Assembly: GCF_013004595.1 (NCBI RefSeq)
Contig: NZ_JABEMC010000008.1
Location: 62,001 to 107,349, forward strand
DNA: 45,349 nucleotides
Direction: 5' to 3'
Origin: Brevibacterium luteolum
Lineage (GTDB): Bacteria > Actinomycetota > Actinomycetes > Actinomycetales > Brevibacteriaceae
Shown: positions 37,759 to 45,349 of the stretch, piece by piece
Layout: each line of letters starts with the position of its first letter
How positions within the stretch are numbered: the stretch's first letter is position 1
Notes under the pieces: model-generated
Told to the model about the DNA's origin: nothing
Database searches by the model: none
What the model saw: the letters and a program-made list of their open reading frames with translations, nothing else
Position numbers and translations under genes: made by a program

Positions 37759-38877
37759 TCACGTGTCCCGTCGCTGCACCTCCTGGAACTCGGGTGCCGT
37801 CAGACTGCGGGCATAGGCATCGAGCGGTTCGGCGACGGGGATCTCCGTGGCGCCGGCGCCCATGTCGGTCAGCCGGCGGGCGGTGACGAGCAGGCGGCTC
37901 TCAACAGAGCCGACGAACCGGTTGTAGTCCTCCACACTGCGATTCATCGACTTGCCCAGCTGCACGATATGACCGGCCATCGTGCCGATGCGCCCATGCA
38001 GCTCCTGCGCGGTGGCCAGCAGCTCACGTGCTGAGCGGGCGAGCTCGTACTGACGCCAGCCAAGAGCGACTGTGCGCAGCAGAGCGACAAGGGTGGCCGG
38101 GGAAGCCGGGATGACGTCGACGGCGAAAGCCTCATCGAACAACCGCGGGTCCTCCTGCAGTGCCGCTGAGAGCGCGCCCTCATTCGGGACGAAGCAGACA
38201 ACGAAGTCCGGTGTCTGTTCGAAGGCGTTCCAGTATGCCTTCGAGGCCAGCGTGCGGATGTGGGAGCGCAGCCGTCCTGCCGGACCGGAGCCGTTGCCGG
38301 CACTGGTGTCCTGGCCGGGGTCGAGCGGGGCCTTGGCGTCGATGACGATCTGCCGGTCACCGGGGAGATGGACGACCATATCCGGGCGCAACCGCTCGCC
38401 GTTGCGGCCCTGGACGGTGACCTGGGAGTCGAAGTCGACGTGTTCGAGCATCCCGGCGGCCTCGACGACGCGTGTGAGCTGCAGCTCACCCCACGACCCG
38501 CGGGTGCCTGAGGCATTGAGCGCGGTCAGCAGGTTCGACGTCGAGGCCTGCAGCTGCGCATCGACCTGGCTCATATGCCCGAGCCGGGCATCGAGACGGG
38601 CGAACTGGTCGGTGCGCTCGCGCTCGAAGCCGGTGACATCGCTGTGCAGGCGATTCACCTGGGCGGCCAAGGGACCCATGAGTTCGGCGAGCTCATGCGT
38701 CATCCCGGCATCGGCCTCCAGGGCCTGGACGCGCTCGGAGTGCAGCCGCTCAGCCGTCTGCGCCTGCGCGAGGGCTGCTGCCATGCGCGAACGCGCCACT
38801 GTCGCACCGAGGAAGAAGCCTGCGACCGCTCCGATGAGGAGGACGAGGACGGTGATGAAGATCGTGGGTGCATCCAT
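37759..38877 (-). CDS. rmuC: DNA recombination protein RmuC
   Basis: N-terminal TM, coiled coil, RGSWGE.QL, RPD, IDAK.P, L..K.Y, FVP.E. Confidence 0.92.
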   Translation of the reverse strand: MDAPTIFITVLVLLIGAVAGFFLGATVARSRMAAALAQAQTAERLHSERVQALEADAGMTHELAELMGPLAAQVNRLHSDVTGFERERTDQFARLDARLGHMSQVDAQLQASTSNLLTALNASGTRGSWGELQLTRVVEAAGMLEHVDFDSQVTVQGRNGERLRPDMVVHLPGDRQIVIDAKAPLDPGQDTSAGNGSGPAGRLRSHIRTLASKAYWNAFEQTPDFVVCFVPNEGALSAALQEDPRLFDEAFAVDVIPASPATLVALLRTVALGWRQYELARSARELLATAQELHGRIGTMAGHIVQLGKSMNRSVEDYNRFVGSVESRLLVTARRLTDMGAGATEIPVAEPLDAYARSLTAPEFQEVQRRDT

Positions 38878-38997
38878 GCTCACAGTCAACCAGGAGCCAC
38901 GGACAACGGTGCCCGGTCACGGCTGCCGGCCACCGCCTCGGGCACGGGGGACTGGCCGGCATGCTGGCACCCAGGCCAGCGGCTACACTGGGGGATC

Positions 38998-40101
38998 GTG
39001 GCTTTAACTATCGGAATCGTCGGACTGCCCAATGTCGGCAAGTCGACCATGTTCAATGCATTGACCAAGAACCAGGTGCTGGCAGCGAACTACCCGTTCG
39101 CGACGATCGAGCCGAACATCGGCGTCGTCGAACTGCCCGACGAGCGGCTGACCCGGCTGGCCGAGATCTTCGGCTCAGCGAAGATCCTGCCGGCAACGGT
39201 GAACTTCGTCGACATCGCCGGCATCGTCCGCGGCGCCTCGGAGGGTGAGGGACTGGGCAACCAGTTCCTGGCCAACATCCGCGAAGCCGACGCGATCTGC
39301 CAGGTGATCCGCGGATTCAGTGATTCCGACGTCGTCCACGTTGACGGCAAGGTCAACCCGGCTGATGACATCGACACGATCAACACCGAGCTCATCCTCG
39401 CTGACCTGCAGACCCTGGAGAAGGCGCTGCCGCGCATCGAGAAGGAGGTCAAGCAGAAGCGGGCTGAACCCGAGGTGCTGGCCGCGATGCAGGGGGCACA
39501 CGGGATCCTGGAGGAAGGGCGCACCCTCTACCAGGCGATGCAGGCCGATGGGTTCGACGCCGCGCCGCTGCGCGAGCTGCAGCTCATGACGACCAAACCG
39601 TTCCTCTACGTCTTCAACGTCGATGACGATGTGCTGGCCGATGAGGCGAAGAAGGACGAGATGCGCGCACTCGTCGCCCCGGTCGAAGCGATCTTCCTCG
39701 ATGCGAAGTTCGAGTCCGAGCTCGCGGAGCTCGACGACGAGGAAGCCGCAGAGATGCTCGAGATGAGCGGACAGGACGAGGCCGGCCTCGACCAGCTCGC
39801 CCGCGTCGGCTTCAACACGCTCGGTCTGCAGACCTACCTGACTGCCGGGCCGAAGGAGGCGCGCGCGTGGACGATCCGCAAGGGTTGGACCGCGCCCGAG
39901 GCCGCCGGCGTCATCCACACTGATTTCCAGAAGGGCTTCATCAAGGCTGAGATCGTCTCCTTCGAGGACCTCGATGCGCTCGGTTCGATGGCCGAAGCGC
40001 GCGCGGCCGGCAAGGTGCGCATGGAGGGCAAGGACTATGTCATGGCCGACGGCGACGTCGTCGAGTTCCGAACTGGGCTAACGTCTGGAGGTAAAAAGTG
40101 A
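38998..40101 (+). CDS. ychF: Ribosome-binding ATPase YchF (Obg family) with atypical C-terminal tail
   Basis: GIVGLPNVGKST, NYPFATIEPN, DIAG, AGVIHTDF, EGKDYVMADGDVVEFR; GTG start at 38998. Confidence 0.97.
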   Translation: MALTIGIVGLPNVGKSTMFNALTKNQVLAANYPFATIEPNIGVVELPDERLTRLAEIFGSAKILPATVNFVDIAGIVRGASEGEGLGNQFLANIREADAICQVIRGFSDSDVVHVDGKVNPADDIDTINTELILADLQTLEKALPRIEKEVKQKRAEPEVLAAMQGAHGILEEGRTLYQAMQADGFDAAPLRELQLMTTKPFLYVFNVDDDVLADEAKKDEMRALVAPVEAIFLDAKFESELAELDDEEAAEMLEMSGQDEAGLDQLARVGFNTLGLQTYLTAGPKEARAWTIRKGWTAPEAAGVIHTDFQKGFIKAEIVSFEDLDALGSMAEARAAGKVRMEGKDYVMADGDVVEFRTGLTSGGKK

Positions 40102-40189
40102 CAAAATCACGCAACCTGCACGCCAGGGTCCGCAACTTCATCGACGGAGAGGTCAGCCACATATGGGCGTGTGAGCTGGGGGCTCCTCG

Positions 40190-41977
40190 ATGATCAAATC
40201 TGCCAACCAGTATCCGGTGCACACGCTGTTCAGTCACGAAGGCAACGTGCTTTACCGGATCCCGCCCTACCAGCGCGAGTACTCCTGGTATAAGTCCCAC
40301 TGGGAAGACCTGTTCGAAGATCTCATCGAGGCCGAGGGCGCGCACTTCCTGGGCACCATCATCACGCTCGACCAGACCACGGACACGCTCGAGGGCAACA
40401 TCCTGCAGGTCATCGATGGGCAGCAGCGACTGACGACGCTCACCTTGTTGTTGGCCGCCGTCTATTCGGTACTCAAGGAACACTTCGACGATCTCGACGA
40501 GGACACACGAACGGACGTCATCAACCTCGGTCGGCAGTTGGTGCGGAAAGCAGACCAGCAGCCGAGGGTGACACCGCAGAAACAGGGCCACAACCTCTCC
40601 GACTTCCGCAAGGTGCTCGAGGAAGCCGGCTTGCCGGTGGAGGGAGAATGGAAGCCGTACTTCCCCAGCCGCAGGATTGCCAAGTGCTACCGCTACTTCC
40701 GCTCCGCGATCCAGAGGCTCGCCGAGACTGAGGAGATCACACAGCCGGAGGCGGCCCTGCGGGTGCATGAGGCGGCCCTACAGGCGGTGATCGTGAAGAT
40801 TGAGGTGGCCAACCACGCCGACGCCTTCGTGCTGTTCGAGTCCCTGAACAACCGCGGGATGCCCCTCTCGCCGGTGGACCTGATCAAGAACCACCTTCTC
40901 GCCGAGTCGGAGAAGAAGCAGATCATGGACGTCGACGAGGCGTTCAAACACTGGAACGACATGCTGACCAGCCTCGGTGACAGCTACTCCACCCAGGAGC
41001 GCTTCCTCCGCCAGTACTACAACGCGTTCAAGTCAGAGCTGCCCGAAGTCTCAAACGCCTCGGTCGCCACGAAGTCCAACCTGATCAGGGTCTACGAGAA
41101 GATTCTCGAGCAGGGCCTCAAACGCGTCGTCGATTCGCTGGTGACGGCGAGCAAGATCTACGGGCGAATCAACTGCGTCGTTGAACTCGATCAGCCGACA
41201 ACCCTTGACAGGTCGTTCCAGCGCCTGATGCGCGCTCAGGGCGCGCCGTCCTACGTGCTCCTCATGTGGCTGATATCGAAGCAGTCCGATCTGGCTCTGA
41301 CAGATGCACACATCGAGACGGTCGTAGACCGCCTCACGAGCTTCTTTGTCCGACGCAACCTAACGGGATACCCGCAGACGTATGCACTGGCGAAGCTGTT
41401 TATGACGACCATCGACGCTGTGGGTGATGCCCGAGGTGACGAGGTGGTGGTGATCGTCGAGGAGAAGCTAAGTGCGGCCTCAGTGTCCGACGAGGAGTTC
41501 CGCACCCGCCTCCTGGGGCGAATCTACGAGGAGAACAGCGACGTCGCCCGGTTCGTCCTCGCGACGCTGGCCGAGGACGCCATGACCAAGGAGACGCGCA
41601 TCGACCTGTGGCGCCAGGAAAAGAACCGTTTCGTTTGGACGATCGAGCACATCCTCCCGCAGGGCGAGAACCTTCCGGCTGAGTGGCAGGAGATGCTCGG
41701 GGGTGAGGAGGTCGCTGCCCAGGTTCAGGAGGAGCACAAGCATAGGCTCGGCAACCTCACCATTACCGCGTATAACAGCAACCTCAGCAACAAGTCTTTC
41801 CTTGAGAAGCGCGACCGCCAGGACTCGAAGGGCAGGCGTATCGGCTATCGAAACGGCCTGTCACTGAACGCTGACCTGGCCACGAGGGAGTCTTGGACCC
41901 CTAATGACATCGAGAATCGCACCGAAGAATTGGCGGAACGGGTGATACAGCGCTTCCCACTGGCCATTGTCAGATAA
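40190..41977 (+). CDS. DUF262 + DUF1524(HNH) protein, GmrSD/SspE-like putative defence nuclease
   Basis: IPPYQREYSW, IDGQQRLTT, FESLNNRG (DUF262); IEHILPQ, LGNLT, NSNLSNKSF (DUF1524/HNH). Confidence 0.9.
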   Translation: MIKSANQYPVHTLFSHEGNVLYRIPPYQREYSWYKSHWEDLFEDLIEAEGAHFLGTIITLDQTTDTLEGNILQVIDGQQRLTTLTLLLAAVYSVLKEHFDDLDEDTRTDVINLGRQLVRKADQQPRVTPQKQGHNLSDFRKVLEEAGLPVEGEWKPYFPSRRIAKCYRYFRSAIQRLAETEEITQPEAALRVHEAALQAVIVKIEVANHADAFVLFESLNNRGMPLSPVDLIKNHLLAESEKKQIMDVDEAFKHWNDMLTSLGDSYSTQERFLRQYYNAFKSELPEVSNASVATKSNLIRVYEKILEQGLKRVVDSLVTASKIYGRINCVVELDQPTTLDRSFQRLMRAQGAPSYVLLMWLISKQSDLALTDAHIETVVDRLTSFFVRRNLTGYPQTYALAKLFMTTIDAVGDARGDEVVVIVEEKLSAASVSDEEFRTRLLGRIYEENSDVARFVLATLAEDAMTKETRIDLWRQEKNRFVWTIEHILPQGENLPAEWQEMLGGEEVAAQVQEEHKHRLGNLTITAYNSNLSNKSFLEKRDRQDSKGRRIGYRNGLSLNADLATRESWTPNDIENRTEELAERVIQRFPLAIVR

Positions 41978-41983
41978 AGTATC

Positions 41984-42019
41984 AATGGTGACGCGGTTGA
42001 GTTCAGGTTTAACGTGTAG
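41984..42019 (+). repeat. Displaced copy of the ychF 3' end (att-like site)
   Basis: aat ggt gac gcg gtt gag ttc agg ttt aac gtg tag = NGDAVEFRFNV-stop; aligns to ychF 40048-40071 (DGDVVEFR). Confidence 0.85.
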
Positions 42020-42060
42020 CGTTATTGACGCTGTGCGTTATTGGTGGGTATGGTTAAGTT
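42018..42060 (+). promoter_or_regulatory. higBA promoter and putative operator
   Basis: TTGACG (42025-30), 18-nt spacer, TATGGT (42049-54), 6 nt to GTG; palindrome AGCGT-N5-ACGCT (42018-32); gcgttattg repeated twice. Confidence 0.6.
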
Positions 42061-42342
42061 GTGATCCAGTCATTCGCCGACAAGGACACCGAGCGACTTT
42101 GGAATCGAGAGCGGGCGCGTTCAATCGATTCCCGAATCCACTCAGTGGCGTTGAGGAAACTGCGCCAGCTCGGTTACGCGCAGAGTCTCGAAGATTTGCG
42201 GATTCCGCCAGGTAACCGTCTCGAAACACTTAAGGGCGATCGCGCGGGTCAGCACAGTATCCGTATCAACGACCAGTGGCGGATTTGCTTTCGGTGGACC
42301 GTTGCTGGGCCAGAGGAGGTTGAGATCGTTGACTACCACTGA
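42061..42342 (+). CDS. higB: HigB (RelE/ParE superfamily) toxin
   Basis: MIQSFADK.TE, LRIPPGNRLE.LKGDR.GQHSIRINDQWRICF, VDYH. Confidence 0.95.
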   Translation: MIQSFADKDTERLWNRERARSIDSRIHSVALRKLRQLGYAQSLEDLRIPPGNRLETLKGDRAGQHSIRINDQWRICFRWTVAGPEEVEIVDYH

Positions 42343-42631
42343 CAAGCTCCCTCCGGTTCATCCCGGAGAAGTCCTCATGGAGGACTTTCTTAAAGACATG
42401 GGTATTACACAGCACAAGCTCGCCGTCTCCATCGGAGTTCCGCCTCGCAGGATCAACGAGATCGTCCATGGTAAGCGTGCGATCACCGCTGACACTGCAC
42501 TTCGGTTGGCGAAGTTCTTTGGTATAAGCCCGCAGTTCTGGCTTGGGCTGCAGACTCAGTACGACCTTGATGTGGCAGAAGACAAGATCTTTCCCGAAAT
42601 CGAGCAGATTCAAACCATCGAAGTTGCCTGA
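42329..42631 (+). CDS. higA: HigA antitoxin
   Basis: PVHPGEVL.EDFL, RINEIVHGKRAITADTALRL, FWLGLQ; TTG start with GGAGGT, overlapping the higB 3' end. Confidence 0.93.
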   Translation: MTTTDKLPPVHPGEVLMEDFLKDMGITQHKLAVSIGVPPRRINEIVHGKRAITADTALRLAKFFGISPQFWLGLQTQYDLDVAEDKIFPEIEQIQTIEVA

Positions 42632-42671
42632 ATAAGAAACAGGCGATCCCACTCGGCGAGATCGAGGAGTT

Positions 42672-42713
42672 GACGGAGGTGCCGAGAATGTCAAACTTGG
42701 CGACTACCACTGA
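42672..42713 (+). pseudogene. 3' remnant of a second higB toxin
   Basis: gac gga ggt gcc gag aat gtc aaa ctt ggc gac tac cac tga = DGGAENVKLGDYH-stop, paralleling AGPEEVEIVDYH-stop of the intact HigB. Confidence 0.65.
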
Positions 42714-43008
42714 AGCCGATGTGATCGAGCCGATTCATCCGGGCGAGGTCCTCATGGCGGACTTCATCAAGGGGCTCGGAATCACGCAGAACAGGCTTGC
42801 CGTCTCGATCGGTGTTCCGCCTCGTCGAATCAATGAGATCGTGCACGGAAAGCGTGGAATCACTGCCGATACTGCAATTCGTTTGGCGCGATACTTCAGG
42901 ACTTCCGACGAATTCTGGATGAACCTGCAGTTGAACTACGAGTTGAGGCGCGGGCGTCTTGCGCTGCGTGATCAGGTTGCCGAGACCAAACCCCTTGAAC
43001 TTGCCTGA
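42688..43008 (+). CDS. higA: Second (orphan) HigA antitoxin
   Basis: EPIHPGEVL, SIGVPPRRINEIVHGKRGITADTAIRL, FWMNLQ; GGAGGT before ATG 42688. Confidence 0.9.
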   Translation: MSNLATTTEADVIEPIHPGEVLMADFIKGLGITQNRLAVSIGVPPRRINEIVHGKRGITADTAIRLARYFRTSDEFWMNLQLNYELRRGRLALRDQVAETKPLELA

Positions 43009-43114
43009 CGATAGGTTCGAGTGAGATCGTTCGACGATGGTCGTGGTCGCTTTGCCAGAACTGCGAGTCATCATGCTCATTGCAGTGTCAGCTGCTCGGT
43101 CTGATACTTGAGCC

Positions 43115-43427
43115 ATGACGATCGGGAAAGTGTCCGACGACCGGTTTGATCGGCACACGACTCAAGACCTTGCTTACCGCGTCCGAGTGCGCGTCATCAC
43201 GCCGAACGCGCTGGACTGCGTGGGCGCGCATCGTTGAAGAATACGGTTCTGACGGTGAGGGCGTTGTGCCCATCGGCGGGGCCGCGCTCATTCGAGTGAA
43301 TGACTGCGAGGCCGAAGCCATCAGCGGGGGAGAAGACGCTCTTGACTCGCTCGAGTGGGCGGTCAATGACGTCCTCGGGGAACCCCACCCTTCGACTAAA
43401 CCCCTCAGAAGGTCCTGTGGGTGTTGA
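43115..43427 (+). pseudogene. Possible frameshifted small hypothetical gene
   Basis: ATG 43115 follows a GATACT -10-like hexamer and reads 40 codons. A second frame continues with protein-like acidic sequence (WARIVEEY...LEWAVNDVLG). No family recognised. Confidence 0.25.
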
Positions 43428-43570
43428 GATCACAGCGGTAGACCACCTCGTGTTCAAACTGCTCCGACGTCCGTTCCACTGCCGAGTGGTACCAACGCGC
43501 CCTCGGCGTCGAGGTTGAAACTCACGATGACCCTTGCCTCCAGCTGGGTCGGTGGCTGACTGCTCTCTAA
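43417..43570 (+). pseudogene. Frameshifted, truncated VOC/glyoxalase-family gene
   Basis: VEITAVDHLVF then, after removing one A in ttcaaactgc, NCSDVRSTAEWYQRALGVEV, a typical VOC N-terminal motif. Confidence 0.6.
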
Positions 43571-43915
43571 GTTGGGCGCGAAGGTCGTCATCATCTCCGG
43601 TGCCGCGGTCACGACCGCAGGCCTCCTCTTTCTCCAGGGGCTGGCAGTGGACTCGTCTTACACCGCCGTACTCTTTCCCGCGCTGATCCTTGTCGGTTTC
43701 GGCATGGGTACAGTCTTCACAGCGGCAATCGCGACGGCAACGACGGGTGTCGACCTCGCCGACGTCGGCGTCGCCTCAGCGACCGTCAACATGGTCCAGC
43801 AGATCGGCGGCTCTATCGGCATCGCCCTATTCATTGGCCTTTATGCCTCCGCCGTGGCGCGACGCATCGCAGCGACGGGAGCCGGCGCCGCAGAGGCAAC
43901 TGTCCATGGCTACTA
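43560..43915 (+). pseudogene. C-terminal fragment of a DHA2/EmrB-QacA-like MFS transporter
   Basis: Hydrophobic helices with GFGMG, GVASATVN..QQIGGSIG and VHGY; no N-terminal half. Confidence 0.75.
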
Positions 43916-44148
43916 TTTCCCGCCCTGCGGGGAGACGCCGAATACAACGCGATCAGCAACATCATGGACCCGCTCATGGGGCCTGCGGCTATTTCACTGG
44001 CCACAAGCAACATCGGGTTCGTGGCTGAGCGATTTCCGTCTCTTTCCACATGGTCAAAATAGACCTCATCAGCCGGTCAGAACCAAGGCTCTGAAAATGA
44101 ACGCAGTGTCAAGCCCCGGGTTTCGTAGAGGCTCCTTTTCTTGGTTTC

Positions 44149-45072
44149 CTAAGCGGCCGCGAGTTCTGTCGTGGACTGGTTGATCCATTCGGAATGGACC
44201 TCGAACGGTGGTCGGTGCCCGATCGCTGAGTGCAGTCGGGTCTGGTTGTACCAAGCCACCCACTTCGACGTCTCCGCCATCACCTCAATCAACCCCGACC
44301 ACGCTTTCCGGTCGATAAGCTCGGCCTTGTAGACCGAGTTCAGCGCCTCCGCCATGGCGTTGTCATACGAGTCCCCACGCGACCCCACAGATGCCACGAC
44401 CTTGGACTCCGCCAGGGTCTCGCCATAGCGAATCGACCGGAATTGCACCCCGCGATCCGAGTGGTGGACGAGCCCGGAGACGTCTTCGCCGGCCCGGTAT
44501 TTCGCAGCCAGAGCCATGGTGAGTGCGTCCCGGGCCAGGGACTCTCGCATATGGTTCGTCACCTGCCAGCCGACGATCTCCCGGTGGAAGACATCGAGGA
44601 TGAATGTCGTGTACACCCACCCAGCAGACGTCGGAACATAGGTGATGTCCGCGACCCATAAGCAATTGGGTGCCGGTGCCGCGAACTCACGCTCGACAAG
44701 ATCATCCGGACACTCCTCAGCCCTAGCCGAAGCCGTCTTCGGGCGCTTCCTCCTGCGTCGGATCCCGTCGATGCCTAACAGGCGCATCAACCGCTCCACC
44801 GTGCAGCGGGCCACCGGACCGAACTGATCGGCGTACTCGCGGTTGATCGCCTTCCACATCTTCCGCACCCCATAACAGGAATAGTTCGCCTCATAGACAT
44901 CCTGGATGATCACCATCAGCGCCTGGTCCCGGCGGGCTCTGGCTGATGGTTGACGCTTCTTGTAGGCGTAATACGAGCTCACAGCAATCCGTGCCGCAGT
45001 CCCGGACAGGGCGCGCACGATTGGCTCGACTCCGAACTCGTGACGATTGTCATCAATGAAGGCGACAATCAC
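44149..45072 (-). CDS. IS3-family transposase OrfB (DDE)
   Basis: YGVRKMW, WVADITY, HHSDRG.Q, DNAMAE..N..YK.E, WYN..RLHS. Confidence 0.95.
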   Translation of the reverse strand: MIVAFIDDNRHEFGVEPIVRALSGTAARIAVSSYYAYKKRQPSARARRDQALMVIIQDVYEANYSCYGVRKMWKAINREYADQFGPVARCTVERLMRLLGIDGIRRRRKRPKTASARAEECPDDLVEREFAAPAPNCLWVADITYVPTSAGWVYTTFILDVFHREIVGWQVTNHMRESLARDALTMALAAKYRAGEDVSGLVHHSDRGVQFRSIRYGETLAESKVVASVGSRGDSYDNAMAEALNSVYKAELIDRKAWSGLIEVMAETSKWVAWYNQTRLHSAIGHRPPFEVHSEWINQSTTELAAA

Positions 45073-45221
45073 TTCGATGGGCGGTCGAGCTCCGCCGCGA
45101 AGAAAGCCGACGCTCTCTTCAAGATCTCGTTGGCCCGTTTCGCTTCGGCCAGCTCAGCCCGCAAACGGCGATTCTCCGCTTCCAAATCCACGGATTCAGT
45201 CGGTGTGGCCTTACCGGAGTC
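45069..45221 (-). pseudogene. C-terminal part of IS3 OrfA
   Basis: DSGKATPTESVDLEAENRRLRAELAEAKRANEILKRASAFFAAELDRPSK-stop; TGA overlaps the OrfB GTG (-1 frame). Confidence 0.88.
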
Positions 45222-45222
45222 C

Positions 45223-45349
45223 GGGACTGCTGAAGGTTTGGTTGACTCTGGGGTTTATGCCGCCAGGGCGACGGCCTTGTGGTGAACCAGCTCGTATTCG
45301 ATCGGGGTCAGTTTACCTAAGCGCCGTTGCCGACGCTTCTGGTGATAGG
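45223..45349 (-). mobile_element. Right end of a second IS3-family element (OrfB C-terminus 45349-45255)
   Basis: Minus strand reads YHQKRRQRRLGKLTPIEYELVHHKAVALAA-stop, followed by putative end gtcaaccaaaccttcagcagtccc abutting OrfA of the first IS. Confidence 0.8.

Follow-up and report, generated by a model that had tools for sequence, protein, structure and literature searches.

Recombinase-free cassette arrays at the 3' end of ychF in Brevibacterium luteolum and other Actinomycetia, probably served by visiting large serine recombinases

In the 45,349-nt stretch of Brevibacterium luteolum DNA examined here (the window, which is the end of contig C20 in a 2.97-Mb assembly of 67% GC and 21 contigs), ychF is followed by a nuclease gene, and behind that gene a copy of the ychF tail reappears just ahead of a higBA toxin-antitoxin (TA) pair. 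How did this tail come to stand there? A reading of the sequence alone (the sequence-only reading) had proposed an integron-like array, in which single-gene defence or TA cassettes are inserted one after another at the VEFR codons of ychF. The comparisons described below point to the following answer: the 3' end of ychF is probably the attachment site of a clade of large serine recombinases (LSRs) in Actinomycetia, where recombinase-free cassettes are inserted and excised by a visiting LSR and arrays grow. Genomes, contigs and loci are designated by G, C and L numbers, respectively.

The window carries two attachment sites, with a central GT at 40060-61 and 41996-97. The sequence and a TIGR00092 match over the cut-off, together with Pfam YchF-GTPase_C, agree on ychF (38998..40101, plus strand) and on the C-terminal end DGDVVEFR-TGLTSGGKK followed by a stop, as the sequence-only reading had it. 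In sequence identity, the window YchF comes to 86-87% with named Brevibacterium records and to no more than 79% with those of other genera; the tails vary among relatives, the ychF sequence after the GT at 40060-61 being that supplied by the first cassette. Site 1 (attL-like; 40030..40101, plus strand) consists of the ychF left arm, the GT at 40060-40061 and a long right arm that encodes TGLTSGGKK-stop and contains the outer motif AACGTCT at 40080-40086. Its core score of 33.6 is the highest in the genome, and its arm class is common to LSR-bearing elements. Site 2 (attR-like; 41966..42019, plus strand) has a degenerate left arm that overlaps the gmrSD end, the GT at 41996-41997, and a short right arm with AACGTGT at 42011-42017 that encodes VEFRFNV-stop. 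The peptide NGDAVEFRFNV-stop had been noted at 41984-42019, 6 nt past the gmrSD stop, and it is no chance match, as argued by both the matrix score and the homology boundaries: the full site scored 46.6, while the runner-up among 5,929,044 genome positions scored 20.1 (the matrix was trained on 25 sites, site 2 among them; the core-only score was 13.5), and site 2, which is unique in the genome, coincides exactly with the homology boundaries against relatives, its left arm being common to G048 and its right arm identical to site 4 of G072. On these comparisons we count the sites and the boundaries as established. The matrix scan revealed no convincing further sites elsewhere in the genome and no continuation of the array.

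A third site, claimed at 42654, did not hold. The stretch 42653-42670 does match ychF at 14 of 18 positions (by eye), but the 18-mer in question (40051-40068) has 1,168 genome matches with four or fewer mismatches, CG replaces GT in register with a score of -63, and the best score anywhere in 42030-45300 is -10.2. The match is due to chance, and the stretch is a deletion junction at which the 3' remnant of a second higB (…ENVKLGDYH-stop) precedes higA2.

The anatomy of the site was derived from 416 distinct examples, 400 of which have GT at the centre. The inner dyad CGGAAC…GTTCCG flanks the centre and is accompanied by an outer motif. On the left, this motif ends at -19 in 152 of 315 cassette arms and 57 of 101 ychF arms; on the right, it starts at +15 in 246 of 317 FNV arms and at +20 in 11 of 20 long arms. 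Passages of PMC3783163 describe a 5-bp shift of the outer motif between the attP and attB arms of serine integrases, and the 5-bp shift between the two arm types at ychF agrees with the attP/attB model given there. In fifteen pairs whose module starts are nearly identical but whose left neighbours differ, mismatches occupy 75 of 180 positions between -12 and -1 and 12 of 150 between +2 and +11, and pairs with a common left side frequently differ at +2. Strand exchange would take place at the GT with which the Val codon of VEFR begins, a crossover position that we likewise count as established. From the dyad and the arm spacing, TGLTSGG and FNV therefore appear to be two spellings of a predicted recombinase-binding arm that also ends a protein. 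The ychF left arm, the cassette left arm and the long right arm all have attP spacing, and the FNV arm alone has attB spacing. Since the ychF left arm is of the attP kind, products resemble substrates and the reaction is predicted to be reversible; this three-plus-one arrangement of half-sites predicts reversal without a directionality factor. Long and short arms may be linked by an intermediate form, FNVT-stop (L272, L358, L361-L364), in which the outer motif is placed at +20 and which stands ahead of an LSR. At many sites, a sequence resembling CTGACCAGGG or its complement is found 10-25 bases past the FNV-stop arm.

Up to 20 kb behind ychF was read in 60 of the 69 genomes of the genus (9 of 69 were not fetched), and 59 were counted; L045 (G006, with multiplied ychF), L241 (no ychF) and seven weak or false matrix matches were excluded beforehand. 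Two to eight same-strand sites were present in 37 of the 47 loci with at least 10 kb read, and no opposite-strand site was detected in 39 loci. Instead of a single tail copy flanking an ordinary island, 31 of the 47 loci hold three or more sites. Copies of the ychF tail recur at the boundaries of variable gene content in relatives, and cassette content and order vary between genomes, both as anticipated. YchF ends in a TGLTSGGKK-type tail rather than FNV in 17 of 59 loci. A search of a species collection with a strict site pattern found at least 134 stretches. Among the matches listed, the 80 titles were all Actinomycetia except for one label of a metagenome-assembled genome, ychF was present in 46 of 72 pattern loci with enough upstream DNA, and it lay on the strand of the site in all 47 of the 47 loci holding it. 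The arrays mostly lack a recombinase, as had been supposed; none of the 134 pattern loci retrieved includes a full-length LSR. Over the class as a whole, matches to the strict pattern are patchily distributed (12 of 401 genomes, control 0), a count that is a lower bound, the window genome itself failing the pattern.

The modules delimited by these sites behave as units. The median length is 1,479 bp for short-arm modules (167 of 220 do not exceed 2.5 kb) and 8.5 kb for long-arm modules. G010, Thermocrispum and Microbacterium have in common a recombinase-free 1,471-bp module with higBA and a hydrolase gene, 98.7-99.0% identical over its length between the sites, while the flank identity is 0.17-0.33 and the DNA on both sides is unrelated; the expectation of near-identical cassettes in distant genera was thus borne out. 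Among 243 distinct modules, 12 full-length pairs are at least 90% identical. G072 and two Corynebacterium records share a 638-bp module at 97-98% identity, and in this case the match also takes in 1.4 kb of DNA upstream. Such alignments, we consider, establish that modules are transferred between genera. Modules with a higBA-type start occupy array positions 1, 2, 3, 4 and 7, and precise internal gain or loss was seen in the pairs L046/L047 and L035/L219. In junction pairs, judged by eye and non-independent, the right side was shared in 59 and the cassette left side in 10 of 38 listed; growth of the array mainly at the ychF end would fit. Insertion one after another at the VEFR codons is therefore upheld in part, modules being gained and lost at internal sites as well. 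The cargo comprises HigBA, GNAT, NUDIX, glyoxalase, hydrolases, regulator-oxidoreductase pairs, MFS and metal pumps, restriction and OLD-type nucleases, and proteins of the aminoglycoside-nucleotidyltransferase family and the beta-lactamase fold. Single-gene defence and TA cassettes are present in the window, but the cargo at large is far wider and is not always confined to one gene or one strand. Similarly, the co-orientation reported downstream of ychF holds in the window up to the insertion sequence (IS) and only partly in relatives, where the ychF strand carries 21 of 27 Pfam-positive genes if the module does not exceed 2.5 kb and 27 of 47 if it is larger. A plus-strand scan of the interval from ychF to gmrSD found no terminator, in accord with the sequence-only reading, and GC content drops from 0.62-0.74 upstream to 0.54-0.63.

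Cassette 1 is the recombinase-free 1,936-bp unit between sites 1 and 2 (40062..41997, plus strand; the ends 40070-42005 given earlier are corrected here). This unit of about 1.9 kb indeed has no recombinase gene, and the assembly as a whole yielded no LSR of the relevant clade either. It encodes a 595-aa GmrSD-family nuclease (DUF262 + DUF1524; Pfam GmrSD_N and GmrSD_C; 40190..41977, plus strand) that matches the PADLOC profiles Orf5, HEC-06, SspE and type IV REase and is likely an anti-phage defence protein. A unit of the same length, 1,936 bp, lies behind ychF in G048; it is 95.7% identical over its full length and ends at site 2, beyond which the next module is another one and the right flank is unrelated. 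The unit bodies are 96-98% identical and the ychF genes 81-89%, and this higher identity of the body indicates horizontal transfer. The GmrSD unit is absent from the ychF loci of the three closest relatives, G047, G057 and G072; in G047 and G057, ychF-FNV leads directly into a higBA-type start. A GmrSD homologue in G181 (86% at the protein level) does not lie behind ychF in the 20 kb retrieved, and homology at the DNA level is confined to the gene; gmrSD therefore also exists outside the cassette. In G048 (L211), the gmrSD frame reads through site 2 and takes its stop from the arm of the next module, as happens in ychF, and the first open reading frame (ORF) of L035 likewise reads through its site; the window gmrSD is stopped by a TAA 18 bases before the GT (region 41960-42019). 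We compared the assembled contigs of four sequencing runs, one of which contains the stretch unbroken. In a metagenome contig, 39971 is joined to 41985, but the 31-letter side of this join, at 88% likeness, is too weak for an empty site. Sites 1 and 2 form a long-arm/short-arm pair and should be excisable, provided that the weak left arm of site 2 works.

Cassette 2 carries higB (42061-42342) and higA (about 42329-42631), together 42061..42631 on the plus strand (Pfam HigB-like_toxin and HTH_3; TIGR02607). Its homology to modules of other genomes begins at the site, and its right-hand site is not preserved. The segment 41991-42829 is 96% identical to G072, in which the higBA module of the window is found at the fourth site. 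The promoter that had been noted after NGDAVEFRFNV is present as a match to TTGACG-18-TATGGT (42025..42054, plus strand; consensus scan) at the start of the higBA module, weak evidence alone, with 1 found and 1.1 expected; the promoter-like start motif of this module follows 33 sites in the genus (regular-expression count).

Which enzyme acts at the site? Two loci encode a protein with Resolvase and Recombinase domains, and one of these genes starts beside a site in an element with a relaxase and a helicase. In other families, six of seven homologues at 42% identity or more have ychF or the site in the fetched DNA. An LSR alignment retrieved 107 metagenome and viral loci, some redundant and some of the viral matches distant, and the site was present in 80 and ychF in 58; a viral scan with a single-protein query had found nothing, whereas the alignment found matches. 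None of 43 distinct ychF-adjacent arms in the LSR loci is the plain FNV-stop arm. On three contigs that also encode tail and recombination proteins, the LSR gene adjoins an unsplit site, a free attP, and on phage contig L370, which encodes a tape measure protein, RecT and RuvC, a near-perfect dyad centred on GT lies beside the LSR (z -3.4). We regard the linkage of this LSR clade to the site as well founded on these loci. The LSR had no match among plasmids and only 29-33% matches among named phages. LSR stubs adjoin cassette arms in L085, L091, L158 and L218, an arrangement suggesting that cassettes derive from LSR elements that have undergone internal deletion. In many elements (L308, L311, L313, L318 and L336 among them), the new ychF stop (TGLTSKK-stop) is immediately followed by the start of the LSR gene; integration may place the LSR under ychF transcription.

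The reaction that we propose would run as follows. Phages and integrative elements encoding the LSR would carry a symmetric attP, and their integration would swap the ychF tail for the long TGLTSGGKK-type. While the LSR is present in the cell, small recombinase-free cassettes with the same arms could be inserted and excised; every cassette would rebuild the ychF tail and leave one hybrid site per junction, and the array would grow mostly at the ychF end. In the window, the long-arm GmrSD cassette would have entered between ychF and an older higBA cassette with a short FNV arm. Cassettes that start with FNV would require either that two like sites recombine or that an LSR element sits directly downstream, as was seen once, in L327. 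Direct recombination of two FNV-type sites has, in our estimate, slightly better than an even chance, and an obligatory pairing of a long-arm with a short-arm site in each reaction is possible, with the balance tilted against it. No common module starts were found that would mark conversion of long-arm into short-arm modules. L327 also contains, upstream of its LSR element, a first-position FAL-stop-type cassette with a protein matching an abortive-infection family (1149-2081). A wider version of the proposal, that ychF hosts a widespread, active and reversible analogue of the integron with serine chemistry and a three-plus-one geometry that dispenses with a directionality factor, whose enzyme is lent by phages and islands and whose cassettes of one or two genes (for defence, TA, detoxification and resistance-type enzymes) circulate between orders, is more tentative and falls just short of an even chance.

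Several observations weigh against the action of a visiting LSR on the cassettes. The LSR clade was detected in only 12 of the 69 genus genomes, and in the window genome it was not found by tblastn, a 16-sequence hidden Markov model or PF07508; the two LSRs of that genome are only 27% and 23% identical to the ychF clade. (These two lie at G000:C7:17053-20821 and C18:145252-147600, the C7 one beside a relaxase-like ORF as judged by eye.) No circle junction was present among the assembled contigs of the four runs. The left arm of site 2 is weak (core score 13.5, against 33.6 at site 1), and the predicted circle junction of the window unit has poor symmetry; given both, cassette 1 may be immobile now. 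The first arms of the GmrSD unit differ strongly between the window and G048. Internal long-arm sites are rare, with one in the array set plus L327. Arms vary by 8% and module bodies by 2%, about fourfold, and ychF third positions just left of the GT differ at 17 of 56, compared with about 10% upstream; a clean 2-bp exchange does not account for this excess variation of arms and ychF codons. Because FNV-type sites served to train both the site matrix and the pattern, motif counts are biased towards them, and pairs and loci are non-independent. No movement was observed, and that the LSR performs the reaction, that it acts in trans, that the intermediates are circular and in what order cassettes were inserted is what we infer from the sequences.

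Some of these observations can be explained by homologous or microhomology recombination over the 25-30-bp repeats and ychF, which would shuffle the modules after an LSR had seeded the first site only. The excess variation on both sides of the GT would be expected, as would the two nearly identical arms in G048. Right arms are more alike within one array (0.69, as against 0.60 when permuted; kin are non-independent; L211 sites 1 and 2, L239 sites 1-4), which suggests gene conversion between the sites of one array. In addition, in place of a cassette arm some modules have at their end a 150-450-bp duplicate of the ychF 3' sequence (L043, L049, L205, L206, L222), and these long duplicates, again contrary to a purely site-specific process, suggest homologous recombination as a second process. 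As the main force, however, it is unlikely: identity changes sharply at the GT, non-coding left arms retain the dyad with fixed spacing, and modules have passed between genera whose YchF is only about 70-87% identical to that of the window. Still less probable is accretion followed by decay, with LSR islands integrating serially at ychF and eroding until the small modules are immobile remnants. The LSR stubs beside cassette arms, the large size of long-arm modules (median 8.5 kb) and the distal decay in the window speak for it, but immobile remnants would hardly include a recombinase-free module that three genera share, between unrelated flanks, at 99% identity over its whole site-to-site length, higBA-type starts at five different array positions, or the precise internal gains and losses in L046/L047 and L035/L219.

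Integrons typically have small cassettes, one site per junction, a single orientation and GNAT, NUDIX, glyoxalase and TA cargo. A true integron or a cluster of attC sites lacking integron integrases (CALIN), or a host tyrosine recombinase of the XerC/D kind, would account for the same features in the ychF arrays (cassettes of median 1,479 bp among them) but is very improbable as the driver, since no tyrosine recombinase occurs among 188 ORFs scanned from 19 loci, the four PF00589 matches of the window genome lie on other contigs (C1, C16, C17), the centre is 2 bp long, a serine recombinase is what tracks the site, and site 2 forms no attC-like hairpin (z -0.95 and -1.76). Movement of the cassettes by a visiting LSR thus remains the reading that we prefer.

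The rest of the window shows, descriptively, the decay with distance that had been remarked upon: intact GmrSD, intact higBA, then a second higBA remnant (42672..43008, plus strand; the last higB codons and an intact-looking higA, with no attachment site before them), distal debris (43146..43916, plus strand; a 93-aa ORF, a short fragment and an MFS C-terminal fragment) and an IS3-type transposase at the contig end (44149..45349, minus strand; Pfam rve and HTH_21). Relatives of the 93-aa ORF occur in the ychF loci of G061 and G080. IS copies related to the IS3-type element stand at other contig ends, the flank of the closest relative aligns with contig C3 of the window genome, and the array may continue on another contig. 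On the other side, rmuC (37759-38889, minus strand) is divergent from ychF. On contig C3 of G006 (L045), ychF is present in several identical copies that point in both directions, and a higBA-type start comes after each of them, either an assembly artefact or an amplification.

If cassettes are exchanged as proposed, small defence, stress and resistance-type genes would have a defined route between actinobacterial genera, food-associated ones included, and the att motif, which delimits cassettes exactly, would provide a ready list of candidate defence genes. The LSR targets a gene end conserved across the whole class, and with its attP, attB and crossover mapped, the enzyme can be tested as an integration tool. 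The hybrid chromosomal site gives a direct prediction on the control of direction by serine integrases. Finally, the swap of the YchF C-terminus between FNV and the TGLTSGGKK-type would alter a conserved ribosome-binding ATPase, a side effect open to testing.

How do these arrays compare with known systems? The attC sites of integrons fold as single-strand hairpins with R and L boxes. Site 2 and one typical cassette site of the ychF arrays fold no better than shuffled sequences (no attC model was run). The arrays share with integrons and CALINs small cassettes of a single orientation with one site each, apparent growth at one end and similar cargo, but have neither IntI nor attC hairpins, and their site is protein-coding and their presumed chemistry that of serine recombinases. 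The integron-like growth claimed by the sequence-only reading can be kept, whereas the chemistry would be like that of the staphylococcal cassette chromosome (SCC), the enzyme most likely being an LSR. As in LSR integrative elements, a Resolvase plus Recombinase protein is linked to the att site (not in cis in the window genome), and the site has a dyad, a 2-bp crossover and an outer motif shifted by 5 bp. Phage serine integrases of the LI/A118 model, as treated in passages of PMC3783163, share the central dinucleotide and, in attB-type arms, an outer motif that lies closer to the centre by 5 bp, and the phage contigs described here have a symmetric attP; the chromosomal site at ychF differs in being a hybrid, with attP spacing in its left arm and attB spacing in its right arm alone. 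GInts were considered and set aside; the portion of PMC5385486 consulted names other targets and not ychF.

The use of ychF by an LSR is already in print: parts of the pipolin paper (10.1101/2024.05.22.595293 / PMC11551731) name it as the integration site of LSR-encoding Actinomycetota pipolins, and the passages naming it give no att sequence, arrays or LSR-free cassettes. ORFs of the window that were scanned gave no Pfam match to a primer-independent PolB, the locus being cut by the contig end and no dedicated search for this polymerase having been made. 'ychF' is absent from the supplements of PMC10083194 searched and was not found in the portion of the PMC11551731 supplement searched, and the literature searched, which did not extend to bioRxiv supplements and subscription papers, contained no description of the cassette arrays, their att anatomy or the cassettes.

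The closest known systems are SCC/SCCmec at rlmH and, grouped with it, the Enterococcus cassette chromosome (passages of PMC6222049). SCC likewise has a large serine recombinase, a target in the last codons of a housekeeping gene, a 2-bp centre, tandem att sites, tandem att-bounded recombinase-free cassettes and defence cargo. According to sections of PMC11470126, Ccr enzymes excise recombinase-free tandem cassettes in all combinations and like sites can recombine; sections of PMC13739063 describe three alike half-sites in SCC, the fourth belonging to the coding frame of the target gene, and this is the same three-plus-one arrangement as at ychF. The enzymes differ, the ychF LSR scoring only 29-68 bits against Ccr models (68, 36 and 35, with cut-offs of 900, 700 and 900), and so do the targets, the 3' end of rlmH with core TATCATAA there and ychF with core GTGGAGTTCCG here. 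SCC cassettes are 17-26 kb long, whereas those at ychF measure about 1.5 kb, hold one or two genes and belong to the phylum Actinomycetota; unlike SCC, the ychF system has a single LSR, which phages and elements of various kinds carry and which the array itself usually lacks. The ychF arrays resemble staphylococcal tandem SCC cassettes at the scale of an integron and are neither integron nor SCC.

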